Shown piece by piece: positions 4,463-19,781 of a DNA stretch of 64,000 bases. Within the stretch, counting starts at the first letter, position 1; each line of letters begins with the position of its first letter. The notes beneath the pieces were generated by a model that was given only the letters and a program-made list of their open reading frames with translations, did not search any database and was not told where the DNA came from. This DNA comes from Candidatus Nanosyncoccus sp. (GTDB lineage: Bacteria > Patescibacteriota > Saccharimonadia > Saccharimonadales > Saccharimonadaceae): assembly GCA_045589895.1 (NCBI GenBank), contig JAZNPY010000002.1, positions 34,546 to 98,545 of the forward strand, in the 5' to 3' direction. Made by a program: the position numbers and the translations under genes.

Positions 4463-4539
4463 GGGCGGCTAGCTCAGTTGGCTAGAGCGCGTCTTTGACG
4501 TAGACGAGGTCAGGGGTTCGACTCCCTTGTCGCCCACCA
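4463..4539 (+). tRNA. tRNA-Val(GAC)
   Basis: Acceptor GGGCGGC/GTCGCCC, anticodon arm CGTCT-TTGACGT-AGACG, T-loop TTCGACT, CCA. Confidence 0.96.
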
Positions 4540-4589: not shown

Positions 4590-4620
4590 AAAAAGGCGTC
4601 CCACCTCGCATTGGGACGCC
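4590..4620 (-). terminator. Intrinsic terminator of the surface-protein operon
   Basis: GGCGTCCCA...TGGGACGCC hairpin with a T-run on the minus strand. Confidence 0.75.
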
Positions 4621-4670
4621 CAAAAGTTAGCCAAAAACAAACACTATTTTAAAGAGTAGTACCTCTTGAT

Positions 4671-5657
4671 TTACCTCTTATGACCATTCTTTTGCTTACG
4701 CAAGGCAACGAATGCCAAAACGGTAGCAACGGTGAAGATGATTAGGCCAGAAATCAGATAGTCGAATCTCGACATATTGAGTTCGGCAAGGAAGCCACCC
4801 GTCTTTGGGACGTCTGGCGCCACTTCGTCCTGGTCACCATCGGTATCCGGGATATCCGGCGTGTCTGGCTCGTCAGGCGTATCTGGAGTATCTGGTTCGT
4901 CAGGACCATCTGGGGAAACGTAGTTCGCTTCGCTACTCACTATACCAGTAGCCGAAGTTAGAACTTCGCCGGCAGCATTCTTAGCTATTGCAGCAATAGT
5001 GTATTGACCGCTACTAGCATGATTGTCTCTAAACGGCAACGTGATGGTTTGGGTGCCTATGACTCCTGGGTTAGTAATCTGAACGTTGATCGGGCTAGAG
5101 AATACTGGTCTATTCGAAGAATCGTAAGCTTGAAGGTCGACCGAATTGACGGCGGAAGCATATTCAATTTCTACCGTTGGGTCGCCATTCTCTGCATTGG
5201 CAACCGTATTCATCTTTAACGGTATGTAGTAAAATTCTACGCTTGCATAATCCGAGCCATCGTTCACGGAAGAATCAAAGCGATATCTACCAAAACCTAG
5301 TCCGTTGGCATTGAGGTCGATAGGCAGCGCATGTGTGCCGTTGAGCTCGGCCGGCAGATACTCGCCATTCTTGGACCCACCAGTAGTAGTGTTGGCGATA
5401 GTGTAGGAAATCTTAACAGCCTGCGAATAGAAGAGGCCGATTTCCATATTATTGTTTAAAGTAATTGTTCCGTTGGCTGGACTTGTGATGTCTAGGCTAG
5501 CCACACTATCGAAGACATTCACCCTGAGGTTGACTGCTCCGCTGGTGCTACCAACAGCATCAACGTCCGGCGTAGGAACAGCAAAGGCATAGGCGGTCAT
5601 AGCTCCAACTATAGCTAAGCCACCTATGCCAAGTATACGTTTTTTGCTTTTTTGCAT
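4671..5657 (-). CDS. Secreted beta-rich surface protein with Pro/Asp linker and sortase-like VPKTG anchor
   Basis: N-terminal signal peptide; Ig-like Asn/Thr/Ser-rich body; PDEPDTPDTPDEPDTPDIPD linker; VPKTG, then a hydrophobic helix and RKQKNGHKR tail. Confidence 0.8.
   Translation of the reverse strand: MQKSKKRILGIGGLAIVGAMTAYAFAVPTPDVDAVGSTSGAVNLRVNVFDSVASLDITSPANGTITLNNNMEIGLFYSQAVKISYTIANTTTGGSKNGEYLPAELNGTHALPIDLNANGLGFGRYRFDSSVNDGSDYASVEFYYIPLKMNTVANAENGDPTVEIEYASAVNSVDLQAYDSSNRPVFSSPINVQITNPGVIGTQTITLPFRDNHASSGQYTIAAIAKNAAGEVLTSATGIVSSEANYVSPDGPDEPDTPDTPDEPDTPDIPDTDGDQDEVAPDVPKTGGFLAELNMSRFDYLISGLIIFTVATVLAFVALRKQKNGHKR
4840..4915 (-). repeat. Degenerate 9-bp coding repeats (PD[E/T/I])n
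   Basis: CCAGATGAG/CCAGATACT/CCTGACGA-type units encoding the Pro-Asp linker. Confidence 0.7.
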
Positions 5658-5731
5658 ACTCTACACTCTTTCTTTTTATTTTTAGTTTTTGTTTTGGCTT
5701 CGCAGAGTAGCGTACTCGCAATTTTTCAAAT

Positions 5732-6712
5732 CTAGACGAGGAGTCTGGATTTGCGCTCTCTGCGCTTCCTGATTAGGATTATAACCCAGATGATAATCAA
5801 TGTCAAGAGGATTATGCTTAAAATCATTACAAATACTGGCATAATCACGACAATCTTAGTTCTCTCTTCTACTACGGAGTTATTTAAAGCACTCACTTTG
5901 TAATGGACTTTGTAAAAACCGAGTAGTGGAGTCTCTTCCCACTCGGTAGTAACGCGGCGGGCGGTGTCCGGAAGAATATTGTAGGAACTATTCTTCAAGA
6001 AGAGCTGCTTGCCGAAAAGAGATTGGATATCGAGCTCATAGACAGCTTCGAAATCAGTGTTACCATTGTTCTCTACGCGGGAGCTAGCCGAAATTTTACC
6101 GGAAGTCATAAAGGTTTTGAAGCCGAAATCGGTGATTTTTGCTTCATCGATAGTATCACCATCGGTGTGACCATAGACGATTAAGCCGACGCGAGAGACT
6201 GTCTTAATACCGGAGCCAGAAACTTTACCCTCGACTTCGTCAGATTCAGCAAAGATAGTAGCATACTGACCGCCAGCAGGAATGCTATCCGGAACAGAGA
6301 TGCGATAGCGAACGGTTTGTTTCTCGCCTTTTTTCAGCTTGAAGTGGGCATCGCTAGTTAAAGAGCCATCGTCCTTATAGAACTGGATCCAGCGTGAAAT
6401 TTGGGTACGATTAGTTTCGTTACTAAAGCTAACGTTGTAGTCTTCATCACTGACCGAATATGGGGCAGCGTAGACATGATAGCCAAAGTCTTCGGAGCCG
6501 ATGTTCGAAACAGTGAAACTATAATCGCTATCCTCGCCAGGAATCAAAGTTACCTTATTGGATACCGGAGAAATCTGGAGCCAGATAGCAGGCTTAGAAT
6601 CTTCGGAAGAAGAGTCGTCAGTATCCTCAGCGTGGACAGTCGGGACAGCGGCAACGAGCGAGCTCAGCACTACTGCGGCTGCAGCTAGAATACTTACTAA
6701 ACGTTTACTCAT
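5732..6712 (-). CDS. DUF916/DUF3324-like (WxL-partner, PapD-like Ig) membrane-anchored protein 2
   Basis: Signal peptide; ISPVSNKVTLIPGE..FTVSN, PAGGQYATIFA, RVENNGN; C-terminal TM plus RKRRERK. Start moved to ATG 6712 (SD AGGAGG, overlapping the upstream stop). Confidence 0.75.
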   Translation of the reverse strand: MSKRLVSILAAAAVVLSSLVAAVPTVHAEDTDDSSSEDSKPAIWLQISPVSNKVTLIPGEDSDYSFTVSNIGSEDFGYHVYAAPYSVSDEDYNVSFSNETNRTQISRWIQFYKDDGSLTSDAHFKLKKGEKQTVRYRISVPDSIPAGGQYATIFAESDEVEGKVSGSGIKTVSRVGLIVYGHTDGDTIDEAKITDFGFKTFMTSGKISASSRVENNGNTDFEAVYELDIQSLFGKQLFLKNSSYNILPDTARRVTTEWEETPLLGFYKVHYKVSALNNSVVEERTKIVVIMPVFVMILSIILLTLIIIWVIILIRKRRERKSRLLV

Positions 6713-7694
6713 TTTCAGTTTCCTCCTTTTTTTCAGAATCACCTTTCTTTTTGCGAGAAACCTTGCTTTCTTTTCCACTGCGCTTACGAGCGCGGGAGAT
6801 AAGCCAGAAGATCATGAAGAAGATGATGGCAAAGATGATGAATAATAGCCAAATTGGGCAAATAAATACTAACTTTTTGTTTGTAGAAACTTGATCAAGG
6901 AAGCTAACGGTTTGTTCGACCCAGAAGATGCCGAGTCTAGGTGCACCATCCCAACTCATCGTACCAAAGCGCCTGGTCTCTGGCATGACGTCGAGTGAGC
7001 CCTTATTATCTTCGTTGTTATAGATCGTCTCTTTGTCGAAAAGTGGCCAAATCTTAAAAGTATATTCAGCAGTTGCTTCGACGTTGCCGTTATTCTCTAC
7101 GAGCGAGGTAACCGTAAGTGGTGGCTCGAAGACGATGCTAGGGATACTATTACTAACGACCGAGCCTTCTTTACGAGTTTCACCAGCGATCGAAGCATAG
7201 AAGATCATACCGACGCGGGAAATAGTGCGAACGTTATTCGCCTCACTAGAACCGTCACCGGTAGAAGCCATAATCGCAGCATACTGACCACCAGCAGGGG
7301 CGTCTTTCGGAACATTAACGGTAAAGTTAACGTCGGCTGATTCTCCTGCGGCGAGCGTGCCGCTCTTAGCCTTCTCGTCGAACGTAATCCACTCAGCGAT
7401 CCGACTGTATGTTCCAACATTATTGTAATTCTGAGTATAATTTTCGTCGACCACACTATATGGTACCGCTTCGACGGTATAATTAAATTCACCCTCGCCA
7501 ATATTCTGAACCTTCATCGAAGAAGTATAACTTCCACCCGGTTCAATCGAAACCTTCTGTTTCGTAGGTGTAATTTGGATAAAAGCTGGCGGAACTCCTT
7601 CGGCGGCAGCGGTAACTGGCGTCAGAAGCGCGGAGCCAACTGATGCTAGTGCGAAAAGCACAGCGGAAAATAATTTTGTGTATTTTTTAGCCAT
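6705..7694 (-). CDS. DUF916/DUF3324-like (WxL-partner, PapD-like Ig) membrane-anchored protein 1
   Basis: Paralog of the previous gene: ITPTKQKVSIEPGG..KVQN, PAGGQYAAIMA, LVENNGN, C-terminal TM and basic tail. Start moved to ATG 7694 (SD AAGGAGG). Confidence 0.75.
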   Translation of the reverse strand: MAKKYTKLFSAVLFALASVGSALLTPVTAAAEGVPPAFIQITPTKQKVSIEPGGSYTSSMKVQNIGEGEFNYTVEAVPYSVVDENYTQNYNNVGTYSRIAEWITFDEKAKSGTLAAGESADVNFTVNVPKDAPAGGQYAAIMASTGDGSSEANNVRTISRVGMIFYASIAGETRKEGSVVSNSIPSIVFEPPLTVTSLVENNGNVEATAEYTFKIWPLFDKETIYNNEDNKGSLDVMPETRRFGTMSWDGAPRLGIFWVEQTVSFLDQVSTNKKLVFICPIWLLFIIFAIIFFMIFWLISRARKRSGKESKVSRKKKGDSEKKEETENE

Positions 7695-7780
7695 TAACCT
7701 CCTTGTTATACGTTCGATTATACACGAGCACAAAGCGAAAATCAACCACATTTTTTCATAAACTTTTTAGCATAAAGGTC

Positions 7781-7809
7781 TTGCTATTTGGTTTATGCTT
7801 TGGTAGAAT
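7781..7809 (+). promoter_or_regulatory. Promoter of pilin/WxL-like gene A
   Basis: TTGCTA-N17-TAGAAT, followed by a 5' UTR containing AAGGTCACATA and SD CAGGAG. Confidence 0.6.
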
Positions 7810-7854
7810 AAAGCTATACATAAGGTCACATAAATGGACAGGAGTTGTATTCCA

Positions 7855-8529
7855 ATGAAAATGAACACTATTCTAGCAGTATCTGGTATAGTAGCCACTT
7901 CTTGCGTTTCGATGCTGCCTTTGGCTGCGTATGGTACCGTAACCTGCACTAACAACGGTCGCCAATGTGCCGACAGTGTAGATGTCGACATTACCGTGAA
8001 TCCGGTTATCGCGATGCGTATTAAATCTAATGCAGATTTGACTTATGGTTTTATCGGGTACGGTCCTAATGGTTCAGAACCGAGCCCAGACGATTCAACT
8101 TCTGGTAATTCTCAGGCGACTGGTCTAAGTTTGGCCGCGAACCAAGTAGACCTAACAACTCTTAACTCCGAAATTGATGTTCGTTCTAATACTGGTGCAT
8201 TTACCTTGACCTTAAAGGATGCTGACGATAACACAAACTTAAACCTAGCAACTCCTAGTAATACAACTGGCGAATATATCCCAACTGCAAACGGAACACC
8301 GGTCGCAACTACCGCTTCTTGGGCGGTTAAAGGCGGTGATATTGCTAACTGGACGGCTATGCCAGCTTCGAGTGGGTCAGCACTTGTAATCGTCAATAAC
8401 GGTGAAAATGATGTTACCCCAGCAGCCGCTTACAGTGGTGTAACAACAGTAAATTACGGCGTAGCTTCTGGATCGGCTAAGGCTGGTACCTATAGTGATG
8501 TTGTAGTCTATACGGCAACGACAAAATAA
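7855..8529 (+). CDS. Secreted WxL-like / pilin-like protein A
   Basis: Signal peptide; no membrane anchor; ends in GTYSDVVVYTATTK; paralog of 8810-9640. Start at ATG 7855 after SD CAGGAG. Confidence 0.7.
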   Translation: MKMNTILAVSGIVATSCVSMLPLAAYGTVTCTNNGRQCADSVDVDITVNPVIAMRIKSNADLTYGFIGYGPNGSEPSPDDSTSGNSQATGLSLAANQVDLTTLNSEIDVRSNTGAFTLTLKDADDNTNLNLATPSNTTGEYIPTANGTPVATTASWAVKGGDIANWTAMPASSGSALVIVNNGENDVTPAAAYSGVTTVNYGVASGSAKAGTYSDVVVYTATTK

Positions 8530-8550
8530 AATAGTTGGAATATAAATAAT

Positions 8551-8578
8551 AAAGCCACCTGGAGACAGGTGGCTTTTT
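8551..8578 (+). terminator. Intrinsic terminator
   Basis: AAAGCCACCTG-GAGA-CAGGTGGCTTTTT. Confidence 0.85.
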
Positions 8579-8761
8579 ATTGATACTAGTGTTTGTGTGG
8601 AGGAGTATATTACTTTATAATTAGCGATGGCCTTAGTAGAAAAATGAGATTGTACGAGAGCGTGGACTTTATGAGGAGATATAATATGGTGGAATAGACG
8701 CATTAGACTACTGAGTGAGATAATAATGGGAGACGTACTTATTCGAGGTTAATCCGAGTTC

Positions 8762-8795
8762 AAAAAAAAGACCGCCATTTGCGGCGGTCTTTTTT
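8762..8795 (-). terminator. Intrinsic terminator (bidirectional)
   Basis: A-run, GACCGCC-ATTT-GCGGCGGTC, T-run. Confidence 0.8.
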
Positions 8796-8809
8796 AGCTA
8801 CTGGGTTAA

Positions 8810-9640
8810 TTAGTTGTTAGTAGCAGTGTAGACGATAGTATCGCTATAGGTACCAGTCTTGGTAGCACCGGAAGCAACACCGTATGCAACGTGGATGTCA
8901 TCGGAGAAGGCGCCTACGCTGTTGGTGCCAGCAGCGGCGATAGTAGCAGCAGGACTACCGGTAGTAGGAACTTCATTCCAAATATTGCCGCTAGCAGCAG
9001 TAGCGTCAGCAATAGTACCTACGTAATAACCCCAACCAGCAGTGGTGCGGACGAGGCCCTGGTTAGTGCCACTTACGGATGGGATGAAGTTACCTGCAAC
9101 TTCGCTAGCTTCAGCGAGGTCTAGATCGTTAGTAGCATCAGCATCTTGAACGGTAAGAGTGAAGTTACCAGTGTTCGAACGGACGGAAATATTGGAATAT
9201 AGTGTGTCGTAATTAAACTGGTTGCCAGCTAGAGAGAGGCCAGTAGCCTGGGATGGACCAGCGGCAAGAATATCAGTGGCGTTCTGGGTACCATCTGGAT
9301 TTACCTTGAAGACACCGTAGTATGGGCTTAGAGAGTAGTAAGTTTTTTCGTTATCAACTTCCGTGTCTTCTGAAAGGGTATAGGTGTATGATGGTGCTTC
9401 ACCACTGCGCTCATACCAACCTTGGGTGCTTGGATTGCCACTAGGTTCCTGAACTTCAGTGTAAGTATTTTCAGCTGCATCAGCGTTGGAGTGAATGCGC
9501 ATAGCGATAGAATCGGTGATCTGAGCCTGAACGAGGACATTACCCGAAGTAGTAGCAGCATAGGAGCTGAGAGGTAGAGCGGCGACGCCGAGACCAGCGA
9601 CAACACCTAATGCAGCAATAATTTTTGTAGATTTGGACAT
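8810..9640 (-). CDS. Secreted WxL-like / pilin-like protein B
   Basis: Signal peptide; shares IAMRI.SNAD, SQATGLSLA.NQ, VRSNTG.FTLT..DAD and YGVASG...GTYSD..VYTAT with protein A. Confidence 0.75.
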   Translation of the reverse strand: MSKSTKIIAALGVVAGLGVAALPLSSYAATTSGNVLVQAQITDSIAMRIHSNADAAENTYTEVQEPSGNPSTQGWYERSGEAPSYTYTLSEDTEVDNEKTYYSLSPYYGVFKVNPDGTQNATDILAAGPSQATGLSLAGNQFNYDTLYSNISVRSNTGNFTLTVQDADATNDLDLAEASEVAGNFIPSVSGTNQGLVRTTAGWGYYVGTIADATAASGNIWNEVPTTGSPAATIAAAGTNSVGAFSDDIHVAYGVASGATKTGTYSDTIVYTATNN

Positions 9641-9687
9641 TTTTTATTTCCTTTCTATTTTTTATATATGACCTTTTTGTACTTCCT

Positions 9688-9716
9688 ATTTTATATTGCC
9701 AAAAAGCTTGTGTCAA
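9688..9716 (-). promoter_or_regulatory. Promoter of pilin/WxL-like gene B
   Basis: TTGACA-N17-TAAAAT on the minus strand; 5' UTR contains AAGGTCATATA. Confidence 0.7.
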
Positions 9717-9861
9717 TAGTTTTTTAAGCTTTTTTTAACTTTTTTTACATGTGCGTTTTTCCACAATTTTACCCCTGTTGTTTTGTGTCTTTTGTTGGAA
9801 AAAAATAGTAGCTTCCCTGACGTAGATTTAGCAACAAAAAACGTCCCAAGCGGGACTTTTT

Positions 9862-9951
9862 TGGTGCGCCTGACTAGACTCGAACTAGCACAGCCAAAAA
9901 ACGGCCACTACCACCTCAAGGTAGCGTGTCTACCAATTCCACCACAGGCGC
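9862..9951 (-). tRNA. tRNA-Leu(GAG)
   Basis: Reverse complement: acceptor GCGCCTG/CAGGCGC, anticodon arm CTACC-TTGAGGT-GGTAG, long variable arm, CCA; terminator hairpin at 9836-9861. Confidence 0.95.
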
Positions 9952-9984: not shown

Positions 9985-11472
9985 TTAGTTGATTTTGTAA
10001 ATGCGGATTGCTAGGTCGTAGGCCTTGTTTTGCGGGGAGAAGGCTCTTATTTCTTCCCATTCTTCCCTGGTGTTAACCTCGCCCATAGGATTGCCGCATG
10101 CGTTGAATCTGGCGATGATATATGTCGGGCGATCTTGGAACTCTAGGATGGCCTCGTCTAGCTCATTGTCGTCGACGACCTTAGCTTCGGAGTCCCAAAT
10201 CATATAGTCGAACGGCTTTTTGTCTACTACGTCATAAATCATGCGACCGCCCTCCATAAAAGGAACGAAGCCAATAGCTTGCGTCAGGGTGTCATCGGAT
10301 CCAACTAAGATTACGGCGTTGTCCTCTAGCAAATTGAGGACGTCGGATACTTCTTTAGAGTAGCTATATTGGCTGTCTATATCGTAATAAGCTTCGGAAA
10401 TGGTGTGCGGTACAGAGAGGACAATCGGTACGAAGCAAAAAGTGCCGATTGGAACGTAGTAAGAAATGAGCTTATATAATTCAAGCTTGCCAGTTAGACG
10501 GTCCAAGATGCTGCGTTTTAGACGCTTCTCTGATTTGGTAAGCCAGATGGCTAAGATGATTAGAAGGATAAACATGGCTGGCTTATGTGGCATAATCGTG
10601 GTGTTATAAGTGATGAAGAGTACCGAGAAATAAAAGCCGAAGCCGAAAAGTGAGTAGACGAAAATCTTTGGGTAGCGTGCGAAGAGGTAAATCATGATAA
10701 ATAGGAGACTGAGCTCGGTAATCGGCATAGCTAGACCGAACAGGACCAGATTGAAAGATTGCATGTATTCTGTCAGGCTCATACGGTACTGACCGTTTAA
10801 TGAAGGAGTGATGATTTGGTGGCTGTGGAGGGTGGTGAATACTGCCGGTAGCAAGAGCGCGAGAGCGCCGACGAGAATGAATGCTGGGATAATCATCTGG
10901 GTGAATTTCTTTGCTTTGATGCATTCGACGAAGAAACCAATCGAGAGTAGGGCGACAAATCCGCCGGCTAGTATGTGAGACTGGGAGAGTAAGGCGAGTG
11001 AAAGAATATAACGTATCGGATGTTCGTGACGCCCGGCATAGGTCAGTCCGACTAGGACAACGCCGAGGGCGATGAAGCTATAGTCGCGCGCGAAGACTGA
11101 GTTATAGTAGAAGAAGCCGGCCGATAGGATGATGACGATTTTTTGCCACCATTTGAATGGCGATTTCCAGAGTAGGAGGAATACAGCCAGAGAGACTATC
11201 GCTAAAGATAGGAAGTTTGTAGTGATGAAGGGTAAGCCAGCTTGGGCAAACGGAGCGAGAAAGAGAGGGTAAAGCGGGGAGTGCGGCTCATATTTTGTAA
11301 CCTCGAAAAGGTTCTCGAAGTTGATAATCTTGGCTATTTGCCAAGGATTAGCCTCATCGCACCATGGTTCATGACGGAAAATTAGAAAAACACCAATCGC
11401 CGCAAAGATAATTGTTGTAGCTACTGCAAGCCAAAAATTGGCTTTTTTGTTATCCTTCACTCTACCTCGCAT
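9985..11472 (-). CDS. GT-C fold (PMT/ArnT-like) polytopic membrane glycosyltransferase
   Basis: HEPWCDEANPW and YEPHSPLY in the first loop, ARDYS motif, more than 10 TM segments, soluble C-terminal domain. Confidence 0.75.
   Translation of the reverse strand: MRGRVKDNKKANFWLAVATTIIFAAIGVFLIFRHEPWCDEANPWQIAKIINFENLFEVTKYEPHSPLYPLFLAPFAQAGLPFITTNFLSLAIVSLAVFLLLWKSPFKWWQKIVIILSAGFFYYNSVFARDYSFIALGVVLVGLTYAGRHEHPIRYILSLALLSQSHILAGGFVALLSIGFFVECIKAKKFTQMIIPAFILVGALALLLPAVFTTLHSHQIITPSLNGQYRMSLTEYMQSFNLVLFGLAMPITELSLLFIMIYLFARYPKIFVYSLFGFGFYFSVLFITYNTTIMPHKPAMFILLIILAIWLTKSEKRLKRSILDRLTGKLELYKLISYYVPIGTFCFVPIVLSVPHTISEAYYDIDSQYSYSKEVSDVLNLLEDNAVILVGSDDTLTQAIGFVPFMEGGRMIYDVVDKKPFDYMIWDSEAKVVDDNELDEAILEFQDRPTYIIARFNACGNPMGEVNTREEWEEIRAFSPQNKAYDLAIRIYKIN

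Positions 11473-16729: not shown

Positions 16730-19781
<3,052 letters not shown>

Follow-up and report, generated by a model that had tools for sequence, protein, structure and literature searches.

A conserved five-gene cell-surface module of Saccharibacteria and its possible role as an usher-less donor-strand appendage system

In the genome of a ruminant-gut Saccharibacterium five genes (P1 to P5) lie between tRNA-Val and tRNA-Leu, and the question is what their products build at the cell surface. The locus was analysed within a 64,000-nt stretch of DNA (the window) and holds two secreted acidic paralogs (P4 and P5), two two-domain paralogs with a C-terminal membrane helix (P3 and P2) and a protein with a VPKTG sortase-type signal (P1). 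On balance we think it probable that these genes encode an usher-less donor-strand surface-appendage system of a monoderm Saccharibacterium. Its most likely product would be a wall-tethered adhesive fibre or complex, involving small pilin-like subunits and membrane-anchored chaperone-like proteins.

Layout and conservation of the locus

The five genes form a cell-surface module that is conserved across host-associated Saccharibacteria (see Table 1 for coordinates). Among 79 species-level loci of other Saccharibacteria, about 70 have the same order (one to three secreted genes, two anchored genes, then P1), which goes well beyond chance. Without exception (73/73 loci) the first anchored gene is of the P3 type and the second of the P2 type, frequently with overlapping start and stop. 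An earlier note had described the five-gene architecture and expected the genes to co-occur in relatives. Both hold: each ORF lies where it had been placed, and the two flanking tRNAs and the two paralog pairs are confirmed. The description "tRNA-bounded" stands for the presence of the tRNAs but not for island edges, since the flanks represent conserved ancestral synteny: of the 31 related loci scanned, most have tRNA-Val after their P1 ortholog and many keep the tRNA-Leu flank.

The MAG also encodes another, smaller cluster of this type, which makes these modules multi-copy paralogs. ATP-synthase genes are absent from the window and from within 10 kb at all 79 related loci, and the window contains no sortase gene.

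Table 1. Features of the locus, in window coordinates. Promoter-like sites are predicted and scored as matches out of 12 to a sigma-70-like TTGACA-17-TATAAT consensus.
Feature	Position	Strand	Basis or remark
tRNA-Val(GAC)	4463..4539	+	ARAGORN; conserved flank downstream of module
Terminator-like hairpin after P1, ends P3-P2-P1 unit	4594..4621	-	10-bp stem, 7 GC pairs, then T run
P1, VPKTG sortase-type protein	4671..5657	-	ORF, 328 aa
P2, second membrane-anchored two-domain WxLIP/chaperone-like protein, acidic N-terminal tail	5732..6712	-	ORF; P3 paralog
Predicted sigma-70-like promoter ahead of P1, inside P2 3' end	5778..5806	-	TTGACA-17-TATAAT, 12/12
P3, first membrane-anchored two-domain WxLIP/chaperone-like protein	6705..7694	-	ORF; AF2, Foldseek, hhalign
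Promoter-like site, P3-P2-(P1) operon	7717..7745	-	TTGATT-17-TATAAT, 10/12
Promoter-like site, P4	7781..7809	+	TTGCTA-17-TAGAAT, extended TG
P4, secreted acidic pilin-like subunit	7855..8529	+	ORF 7834/7855-8529; homologs begin at MKMN
Terminator-like hairpin after P4, bidirectional	8551..8576	.	11-bp stem, scored on both strands
Terminator-like hairpin after P5	8771..8785	-	GC-rich stem, then T8
P5, secreted acidic pilin-like subunit	8810..9640	-	ORF; P4 paralog
Promoter-like site, P5	9688..9716	-	TTGACA-17-TAAAAT, 11/12
tRNA-Leu(GAG)	9862..9951	-	ARAGORN; conserved flank upstream of module

The anchored, secreted and sortase-type proteins

The ORFs of P3 and P2 were called as 6705-7751(-) and 5732-6778(-), with the real starts at 7694 (MAKKYT, AGGAGG upstream) and at the ATG at 6712 (MSKRLV, GGAGG upstream). 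The two proteins are 31% identical (E 1e-52), and the P3 stop (6705-6707) and P2 start (6710-6712) give an 8-nt overlap as read off the sequence, in agreement with the earlier proposal of translationally coupled paralogs. The AF2 model of P3 (pLDDT 89.3) consists of two beta-sandwich domains and a C-terminal helix (281-323). Both likenesses suggested before, to DUF916/DUF3324 proteins and to PapD, are recovered by Foldseek: the top PDB match is EfmWxLIP1, a WxLIP of E. faecium (9i1y, E 2.4e-13), and the chaperone-usher chaperones CfaA and CsuC also match (~1e-9), with RbmA in fourth place. Outside the signal peptide and membrane helix, we consider the sequence link to WxLIP modest: an hhalign comparison with WxLIP ectodomains yields P 4e-5, or 1e-5 when domain 1 is taken by itself, and an unrelated Ig-like control pair reaches 5.6e-5. 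Weak matches to PF06030 occur in 20 of the 34 family members.

P4 and P5 are likewise paralogs, as had been claimed (36% identity, E 2e-39). Mature P4 measures 20.0 kDa (pI 4.06) and has the N-terminal strand DSVDVDITV; in mature P5 (25.8 kDa, pI 4.05) the N-terminal strands are followed by a variable insert of about 75 aa. The C-termini read GTYSDVVVYTATTK and GTYSDTIVYTATNN. In the AF2 model of P4 (pLDDT 84) the N-terminal 50 residues are of low confidence; they include the conserved strand, as would be expected if that strand pairs in trans. The pilin likeness proposed for the secreted pair is borne out by the identity of the best fold matches, which are all chaperone-usher pilins (CfaB, CS17, CsuA/B, PapA, FimA), but less so by their strength (E ~1e-2, none at or below 1e-3, probability 0.97, TM-score 0.33-0.5). 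For the secreted pair no WxL membership could be detected: no member among the 140 scanned matches PF13731, and the profile-profile comparison with WxL gives P = 0.2.

P1 begins with a signal peptide and an N-terminal V-x-V-x-V strand, continues with one or more Ig-like regions (weak Pfam/NCBIfam matches) and a Pro/Asp-rich stalk, and ends in VPKTG, a membrane helix and basic residues (...APDVPKTGG, hydrophobic stretch, RKQKNGHKR). The combination of [VIL]PxTG, TM and basic tail is kept in 53 of 73 orthologs, which fits the VPKTG-anchored Ig-like protein of the earlier reading, and we propose that P1 is a cell-wall-anchored base or terminator subunit. The alternating-valine strand is common to P1 and the secreted families (consensus G-x-V-x-V-x-V-x-V in subunits). 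It co-varies between lineages, with a similarity of 1.35 within a locus against 1.02 between loci, a value reached by 0 of 2000 permutations in a statistic that ignores phylogeny. Such sharing and co-variation would fit donor strands that enter a common groove.

It might be argued that the five genes merely lie side by side and encode surface proteins of independent function that do not assemble together, such as generic Ig-like adhesins, S-layer or matrix components. No Pfam or NCBIfam model reaches its cut-off for any of them, and Ig-like folds match promiscuously (697 PDB matches at E <= 1e-3 for P3). Nonetheless, we regard this as very unlikely given the strict conservation of order and orientation in about 70 species, the invariant succession of the anchored genes with their frequent overlap, and the co-varying motif of P1 and subunits. 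Furthermore, the top fold matches form pairs (chaperone with pilin, WxLIP with partner) and not a random set of Ig domains.

Proposed assembly and comparison with known systems

For the donor-strand system we infer every step from the genes, the models and the likeness to known systems. Sec would export all of P1-P5. P3 and P2, held in the membrane by their C-terminal helix, would serve either as chaperones or as platforms for assembly: the final hairpin of Ig-like domain 1 (...PAGGQYAAI...RVGMIFYA) would complete the incomplete beta-sandwich of a new P4 or P5. The N-terminal strand of a subunit would then displace the chaperone strand in its neighbour, resulting in a chain with non-covalent links. 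P1 may plug the last subunit with its strand of the same kind, and its sortase signal would lead to a covalent link to peptidoglycan, tethering the fibre or complex to the wall. Some relatives encode larger proteins in which the subunit core is fused to BspA-LRR, DUF1566 or Fib_succ domains; these LRR or lectin-like parts could serve as adhesive ends. The likely role would be attachment to a host bacterium or to gut surfaces.

The locus had been put forward as a candidate undescribed system, a label that is outdated since the 2026 preprint on the Pam pili of the Saccharibacterium Ca. Mycosynbacter amalyticus (bioRxiv 10.64898/2026.03.03.709456); the idea of an usher-less fibre with membrane-tethered chaperones has gained, such a pilus having been seen by cryo-EM. 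Pam filaments form by donor-strand exchange from the pilins PamA/B/E/T, with PapD/FimC-like chaperones that carry C-terminal membrane helices (PamC/D), an anchor with RbmA fold (PamR), a membrane-anchored terminator that inserts its N-terminal strand, and no usher (bioRxiv 10.64898/2026.03.03.709456). By analogy, our locus would work most like the Pam system, and it also has ties to the Firmicutes WxL/Csc clusters. It has the same kinds of parts in the same phylum: Sec-exported pilin-like subunits of the truncated Ig-like chaperone-usher type, two-domain PapD/FimC-like proteins with a C-terminal membrane helix, and a cell-bound terminator proposed to donate its N-terminal strand.

This shared logic, together with the RbmA match of P3, might indicate a direct ortholog of the pam operon that is already known in full, with P3/P2 as PamC/PamD or PamR and P4/P5 as reduced Pam pilins or PamT. 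We consider that improbable. Pam pilins, PamA and PamB among them, are two-domain proteins (NTD-linker-CTD) of 38.7 and 55.3 kDa, whereas P4 and P5 have a single domain, 20-26 kDa and a putative donor strand at the N-terminus. The proposed base P1 is of the sortase type, whereas the Pam base is a membrane-helix RbmA-like protein and the preprint describes no LPXTG component. Going by the published description, Pam has three anchored paralogs against two here. The pam operon is reported to adjoin ATP-synthase genes across CPR lineages (bioRxiv 10.64898/2026.03.03.709456), in contrast to our locus, which has no ATP-synthase, CorB or MFS neighbourhood. The multi-copy nature of the modules also argues against simple orthology.

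Csc clusters of Lactobacillales, Listeria and Bacillus encode CscA (a WxLIP with DUF916, DUF3324 and TM), CscB (small WxL), CscC (large WxL) and CscD (small LPXTG). Here too the products could form a non-filamentous complex, in which WxLIP-like anchors retain P4 and P5 at the wall (1:1 or in a small complex) and P1 is the peptidoglycan-linked partner in the CscD role, offering adhesion or nutrient-capture surfaces without polymerising. The best structural match of P3 points this way, and so does its domain plan, which is identical from the signal peptide through the two Ig-like domains to the C-terminal helix. The PF06030 matches agree, as do the make-up and gene order of actual WxL clusters (small secreted proteins, then DUF916/DUF3324 protein, LPXTG protein alongside). 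Both systems have several clusters per genome and a short N-terminal strand motif common to secreted and LPXTG proteins, and P4/P5 are as small and acidic as CscB (190-280 aa, pI 4-5; PMC1534035). In the non-significant WxL alignment (P 0.2), two motif pairs (ITVyTN..GYTLxV on VQVTDNRGT..GWTLxV and GTYxDTIvYTAT on Y..TLTWtLsD) keep their order and are similarly spaced.

Still, we rate this alternative as possible but rather unlikely. WxL homology has no statistical support, and P4/P5 have F/Y-T-L and Y-T-A instead of Trp-x-Leu motifs. The NQIDKxxxYFDLK motif is not conserved, two WxLIP-like genes are present against one in Csc clusters, and P1, at ~300 aa, is roughly three times as large as CscD (90-140 aa). 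A large WxL (CscC) protein or adhesin with C-terminal WxL is lacking, the adhesin-like fusions of relatives having the subunit core at the N-terminus. Serial strand donation accounts better for the co-varying strand on subunits and P1, and the related Pam organism demonstrably makes filaments. The two readings are partly compatible, given that WxLIP and WxL proteins themselves bind by strand complementation.

The favoured donor-strand reading also draws on chaperone-usher systems (Csu, archaic; CFA/I and CS17, alternate class 5), which supply the top pilin matches of P4 and chaperone matches of P3. At the C-terminus of the subunits, the G-x-Y-x-D-x-v-x-Y strand is similar to the SCPU/Csu type; at the N-terminus, the alternating-hydrophobic extension looks like a donor strand. 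In contrast, our organism lacks an outer membrane and the locus an usher; the base would be sortase-anchored, P3/P2 are membrane-tethered whereas Gram-negative chaperones are soluble in the periplasm, and sequence similarity is undetectable (SCPU matches 2 of 118 secreted-family members, E 0.07).

Among monoderms, TasA/TapA of Bacillus subtilis forms usher-less donor-strand fibres with an accessory protein that acts by strand complementation (PMC10151520). Our locus would be similar in this respect, but it has no SipW-type peptidase and its accessory proteins P3/P2 are two-domain and membrane-anchored; its proteins gave no match to TasA in fold or in sequence. With SpaA-type sortase pili it shares the monoderm envelope and one component with an LPXTG-like signal that would be wall-linked. 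Covalent sortase polymerisation of that type is excluded: the candidate major subunits P4 and P5 carry no sorting signal and the cluster no pilus-specific sortase.

Transcription signals and expression

Separate promoters and terminators had been claimed for P4 and P5, and promoter-like and terminator-like sites are indeed found at these places (Table 1). Expression is represented by a single low-depth metatranscriptome contig, which covers the 5' end of P5. One metagenome contig skips positions 9250-9478, corresponding to the P5 insert.

Gene order, transcription signals and distribution

The five open reading frames, the two flanking tRNA genes and the sequence details described in an earlier note were all found in the window. 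The genes encode a sortase-type protein (P1), two membrane-anchored two-domain paralogs (P2 and P3, together family A1; 31% identity, E 1e-52) and two secreted acidic paralogs (P4 and P5, together family A3; 36% identity, E 2e-39); no additional A1 or A3 paralogs are present elsewhere in the window. GGAGG-type Shine-Dalgarno sequences precede the true starts of both anchored genes, and the P2 start overlaps the P3 stop codon by 8 nt. Promoter-like and terminator-like sites divide the module into two single-gene transcription units, P5 and P4, and a third that joins P3, P2 and P1. A perfect consensus promoter inside the last of these suggests that P1 may also be transcribed separately from both anchored genes.

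Coordinates of features in the window and in related loci
Feature	Position	Strand	Remarks
P1	4671-5657	minus	C-terminal end is a VPKTG sorting signal, then a hydrophobic helix and a basic tail
Sigma-70 consensus promoter TTGACA-17-TATAAT	5778-5806	minus	12/12 match; in the 3' end of P2, ~120 nt 5' of the P1 start
P2, true start	6712
P3, true start	7694
Cys-x7-Cys loop of P4	7900-7935		Residues TVTCTNNGRQCAD
Segment lacking from a bovine-gut metagenome contig (run X1)	9250-9478		227 nt inside P5
Bovine-gut metatranscriptome contig	9529-9725		4.5x; P5 5' end and leader
495-aa ORF	9985-11472	minus	Many hydrophobic segments; adjoins the module and an SBP_bac_5 gene
350-aa ORF	18729-19781	minus	Upstream of an M48 peptidase gene
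Large A3-core fusions in relatives	L067:13383-16049; L070:12849-15200; L029:17715-19781		P0143, P0242/P0371; some directly downstream of the module

Metatranscriptome contigs lie nearly all on the tRNAs, with one more on the 5' end of P5, and are too sparse for use. The bovine-gut contig over the P5 leader extends beyond the predicted -35 box, which means either that transcription starts farther upstream or that the library contains carried-over DNA. Housekeeping genes surround the module (BipA, SDR, DUF308, solute-binding protein, UvrC, enolase and LigA). The 495-aa and 350-aa ORFs of the table have no Pfam match at E <= 1e-3.

All homologs that carry a name belong to Candidatus Saccharibacteria. 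An uncultured Saccharibacterium MAG contig (L003) is 97% identical over P3, and the locus is also found in bovine and goat gut metagenomes. The A1 family counts 378 word-index matches and 369 relatives among species-representative genomes; for A3, 21 matches were obtained at first, 367 proteins by profile search and 623 clusters at 50% identity with an exhaustive HMMER search. Of 79 loci taken from different species of Saccharibacteria, about 70 keep the order A3 (1-3 copies), A1, A1, P1 on one strand; they span gut, mouse and oral lineages and include Nanosyncoccus and Nanosynbacter (a single A3 gene is inverted in some loci, among them the window). Within the A1 pair the P3-type gene comes first and the P2-type second in 73/73 loci, frequently with overlapping start and stop codons. 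Given that the same genes, tRNA-Leu(GAG) and tRNA-Val(GAC), border the module in many species, the locus is inherited vertically, and a mobile island with the tRNAs as its edges is ruled out. The closest related genome, that of the L003 MAG, holds on another contig (L030, CAMVNH010000007.1) a second, smaller cluster of a subunit-like gene, one A1 gene and another subunit-like gene, showing that the modules are multi-copy, like the WxL clusters of lactobacilli.

Folds and family relations of the anchored and secreted pairs

None of the five proteins scored above the cut-off of a curated Pfam or NCBIfam model, and the profile searches with A1 and A3 against PDB sequences gave no meaningful match (the A1 profile did not recover 9i1y, the best structural match of P3). 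The AF2 model of P3 (pLDDT 89.3) consists of two beta-sandwich domains and a C-terminal helix at residues 281-323. Its top Foldseek matches in the PDB are WxLIP structures of E. faecium (9i1y, EfmWxLIP1, E 2.4e-13; 9i25, 'WxLIP bound to long WxL', 1.5e-12), followed by RbmA and then by the chaperone-usher chaperones CfaA and CsuC at about 1e-9. At the sequence level, PF06030 (DUF916) matches A1 weakly (20 of 34 members, best family E-value 8e-5; P3 itself reaches 16.4 bits, below the cut-off of 27.3), and PF11797 (DUF3324) has zero matches among the same number of members.

For a direct comparison we used six annotated WxL clusters on plasmids of Enterococcus, Bacillus and Listeria (L082-L087). 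With the membrane helix included, hhalign aligned A1 to WxLIP at 96% probability (1e-9), a figure inflated by the helix; the ectodomains only, after removal of signal peptide and helix, gave 70% (P 4e-5). Of the two domains aligned singly, domain 1 reached 82% (P 1e-5) and domain 2 no significance; a control alignment of WxLIP with an Ig-like domain of P1 gave P 5.6e-5. The most conserved A1 motif, PxDAPAGGQYAAI followed by RVGMIFYA, sits in the last hairpin of domain 1, about residues 135-169 of P3. Altogether, A1 is both WxLIP-like and chaperone-like, probably a remote homolog, and stands outside the family by curated thresholds.

Mature P4 (20.0 kDa) and P5 (25.8 kDa) are acidic (pI about 4.05) and single-domain, and they end in YTATTK and YTATNN, respectively, with no sorting signal. 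The AF2 model of P4 (pLDDT 84) is a single beta-rich domain, in which the conserved N-terminal G-x-V-x-V-x-V-x-V-x-P, the candidate donor strand of both proteins, is modelled at low confidence. Its best fold matches in the PDB are all chaperone-usher pilins (CfaB, CS17, CsuA/B, PapA, FimA and Caf1), at weak scores (E about 1e-2, probability up to 0.98, TM-score 0.33-0.5).

Membership of A3 in the WxL family is rejected: PF13731 matched 0/140 members (22 + 118, at E <= 1-10), and hhalign against 12 genuine small WxL proteins gave P 0.2. At the positions of the WxL motif A3 has (F/Y)-T-L and Y-T-A, and V/Y-x-T/S-N replaces D-x-R. The best local alignment, non-significant at that same P value, places ITVyTN..GYTLxV on VQVTDNRGT..GWTLxV and, when extended, GTYxDTIvYTAT on Y..TLTWtLsD, with order kept and similar spacing. 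We regard this order-preserving, motif-level resemblance between the sequences as a lead. A sequence search of the PDB found no small-WxL structure, so the missing fold match to WxL carries little weight.

Some further variation was seen within A3. In P4 and the closely related orthologs P0001-P0005, the N-terminal valine strand is immediately preceded by a Cys-x7-Cys loop, which may form a disulfide-bonded cap; the loop is absent from P5 and most of A3. The segment lacking from the bovine-gut metagenome contig corresponds to a variable insert of P5 relative to P4, and L003 likewise has a shorter P5 ortholog (241 against 276 aa). Indels appear to have a strain-level hot spot in the loop that follows the N-terminal strands of P5. 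In relatives, proteins of 366-888 aa fuse an N-terminal A3 core to BspA-type leucine-rich repeats, Fib_succ_major or DUF1566/Lcl_C, and the only Pfam annotation in A3 members is the C-terminal Fib_succ_major, DUF1566 or Lcl_C of such fusions. The large fusion proteins are candidate adhesive tip subunits.

A common N-terminal strand and the proposed assembly

P1 orthologs are about 300 aa long (against 90-140 aa for CscD, the small LPXTG protein of WxL clusters), and 53 of 73 keep a [VIL]PxTG sorting signal. About 12 residues past the predicted signal-peptide cleavage site, mature P1 shows the motif of the secreted subunits, G-x-V-x-V-x-V-x-V. From locus to locus the two versions vary in step, for example GDVDVVVEV in the subunit and GNVDVVVQV in P1 of the gut clade, KNVTVKVNV and SNVTVRLTV in the oral clade. 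Mean subunit/P1 similarity of the motif is 1.35 within loci against 1.02 between loci, a value reached in 0/2000 permutations, with species relatedness left uncontrolled. Together with the low pLDDT of the conserved strand in the P4 model, the strand's presence in P1 and this co-variation give indirect support to donor-strand exchange.

The proteins are exported, the two anchored paralogs are fixed, the sorting signal and the operon structure are conserved, and the N-terminal strand is common and co-varying; the modelled folds are pilin-like for the secreted and chaperone/WxLIP-like for the anchored components. We propose that the last domain 1 hairpin of P3 and P2 provides strand complementation to P4 and P5, and that the two anchored proteins in this way hold and prime the subunits. 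The subunits would then chain through donation of their N-terminal strands, and P1, attached to peptidoglycan by a sortase from some other locus, would give the last strand. In relatives, the fusion proteins with LRR or lectin-like domains would form the adhesive ends.

Saccharibacteria live by attachment to host bacteria and, to our knowledge, little is known of how they bind them apart from type IV pili. Its wide distribution, its strict gene order and its occurrence in gut and oral lineages, cultivable genera among them, make the module a strong and testable candidate for an attachment organelle.

Comparison with known surface systems

The earlier note read the locus either as a WxL/DUF916-like cluster or as an usher-less chaperone-pilin system; each reading is partly right, and the two are probably convergent. 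In WxL/Csc clusters, WxLIP is defined by a signal peptide, PF06030, PF11797 and a C-terminal membrane helix (Siezen 2006; Hassan & Williamson 2022/2023), and the P3 model has the corresponding layout, although PF06030 stays below its cut-off and PF11797 has no match. Mature P4 and P5 fall within the size and charge range reported for the small WxL protein CscB (PMC1534035). P1, with its VPKTG signal, transmembrane helix and basic tail, has the features of the LPXTG partner CscD, which was proposed to anchor the complex 'through as yet unknown interactions' (PMC1534035). Nonetheless, the module, with its two WxLIP-like and two small secreted genes, has no WxL domains and no large protein with a C-terminal WxL domain.

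As for the second reading, two filaments of Ca. Mycosynbacter amalyticus, also a Saccharibacterium, have been solved and are Pam pili, polymers formed by donor-strand exchange (bioRxiv 10.64898/2026.03.03.709456). In the pam operon, which has no usher gene, the chaperones are PapD/FimC-like and carry C-terminal membrane helices, and there is an RbmA-like membrane-anchored protein whose proposed N-terminal strand insertion leads to fibre termination (same preprint). The P3 model and its matches to CfaA and CsuC agree with such a two-domain chaperone with a retained C-terminal helix, and no usher-like or other large beta-barrel gene was found at the locus. The module is real and conserved, and the usher-less donor-strand principle is already described in the Pam preprint. 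The two systems differ, however, in several respects. Pam pilins are two-domain proteins of 38-55 kDa, with a nine-strand NTD, a linker donor strand and a truncated Ig-like CTD (bioRxiv 10.64898/2026.03.03.709456), whereas P4 and P5 are single-domain. The Pam base is RbmA-like and membrane-anchored, that of the module (P1) sortase-type. Pam genes are reported to neighbour ATP-synthase genes, whereas an ATP-synthase alpha/beta Walker motif was found neither in the window nor within 10 kb in the 79 related loci. Matches of 366 and 529 aa, candidate Pam proteins by their size, turned out to be gut-Saccharibacteria fusions of a subunit domain with DUF1566 or Fib_succ_major.

Other pilus types fit less well. 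Classical, alternate and archaic chaperone-usher pili use an outer-membrane usher and a soluble periplasmic chaperone, unlike the module, which belongs to a monoderm and has membrane-anchored chaperone-like proteins. Sortase-assembled Gram-positive pili have an LPXTG major pilin and a cluster sortase; a sortase-polymerised pilus is rejected since P4 and P5 lack a sorting signal, and a TLxTC (sortase) ORF was found in 1 of the 79 related loci and not in the window. A type IV pilus is likewise rejected, as neither secreted protein has a class III signal peptide.

Among the papers searched, the Pam preprint aside, none connects Saccharibacteria to WxL or LPXTG proteins or this module to donor strands. 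The module would extend the Pam principle of donor-strand fibres with no usher to small single-domain subunits and a sortase-anchored base. The main additions are the proposed sortase-anchored donor-strand protein and a bridge, the first both structural and genomic, from a Pam-type system to the WxL/WxLIP clusters of enterococci, listeriae and lactobacilli.

It might even be argued, though we think it rather unlikely, that one ancient class of monoderm appendages unites the Firmicutes WxL/Csc clusters with the CPR Pam pili, the Saccharibacterial module being the missing link. If so, a membrane-anchored WxLIP/PapD-like chaperone would prime incomplete beta-sandwich subunits, N-terminal donor strands would polymerise them, and a sortase-anchored protein with the same donor strand (P1 here, CscD in Firmicutes) would end the fibre and fix it to peptidoglycan. 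This would constitute a third pilus route in Gram-positive-type cells, besides sortase-polymerised and type IV pili, and explain at last how CscD and the WxL proteins work.

In real WxL clusters, the small WxL proteins and the CscD encoded with them have a common short N-terminal motif just past the signal peptide (for example YTSNGAITF and YDSNGVTSF in L082; DSKGIVKF and TSKAGVIF in L087). P1 and P4/P5 with their common strand are a parallel case, a hint that strand donation may extend to CscD.
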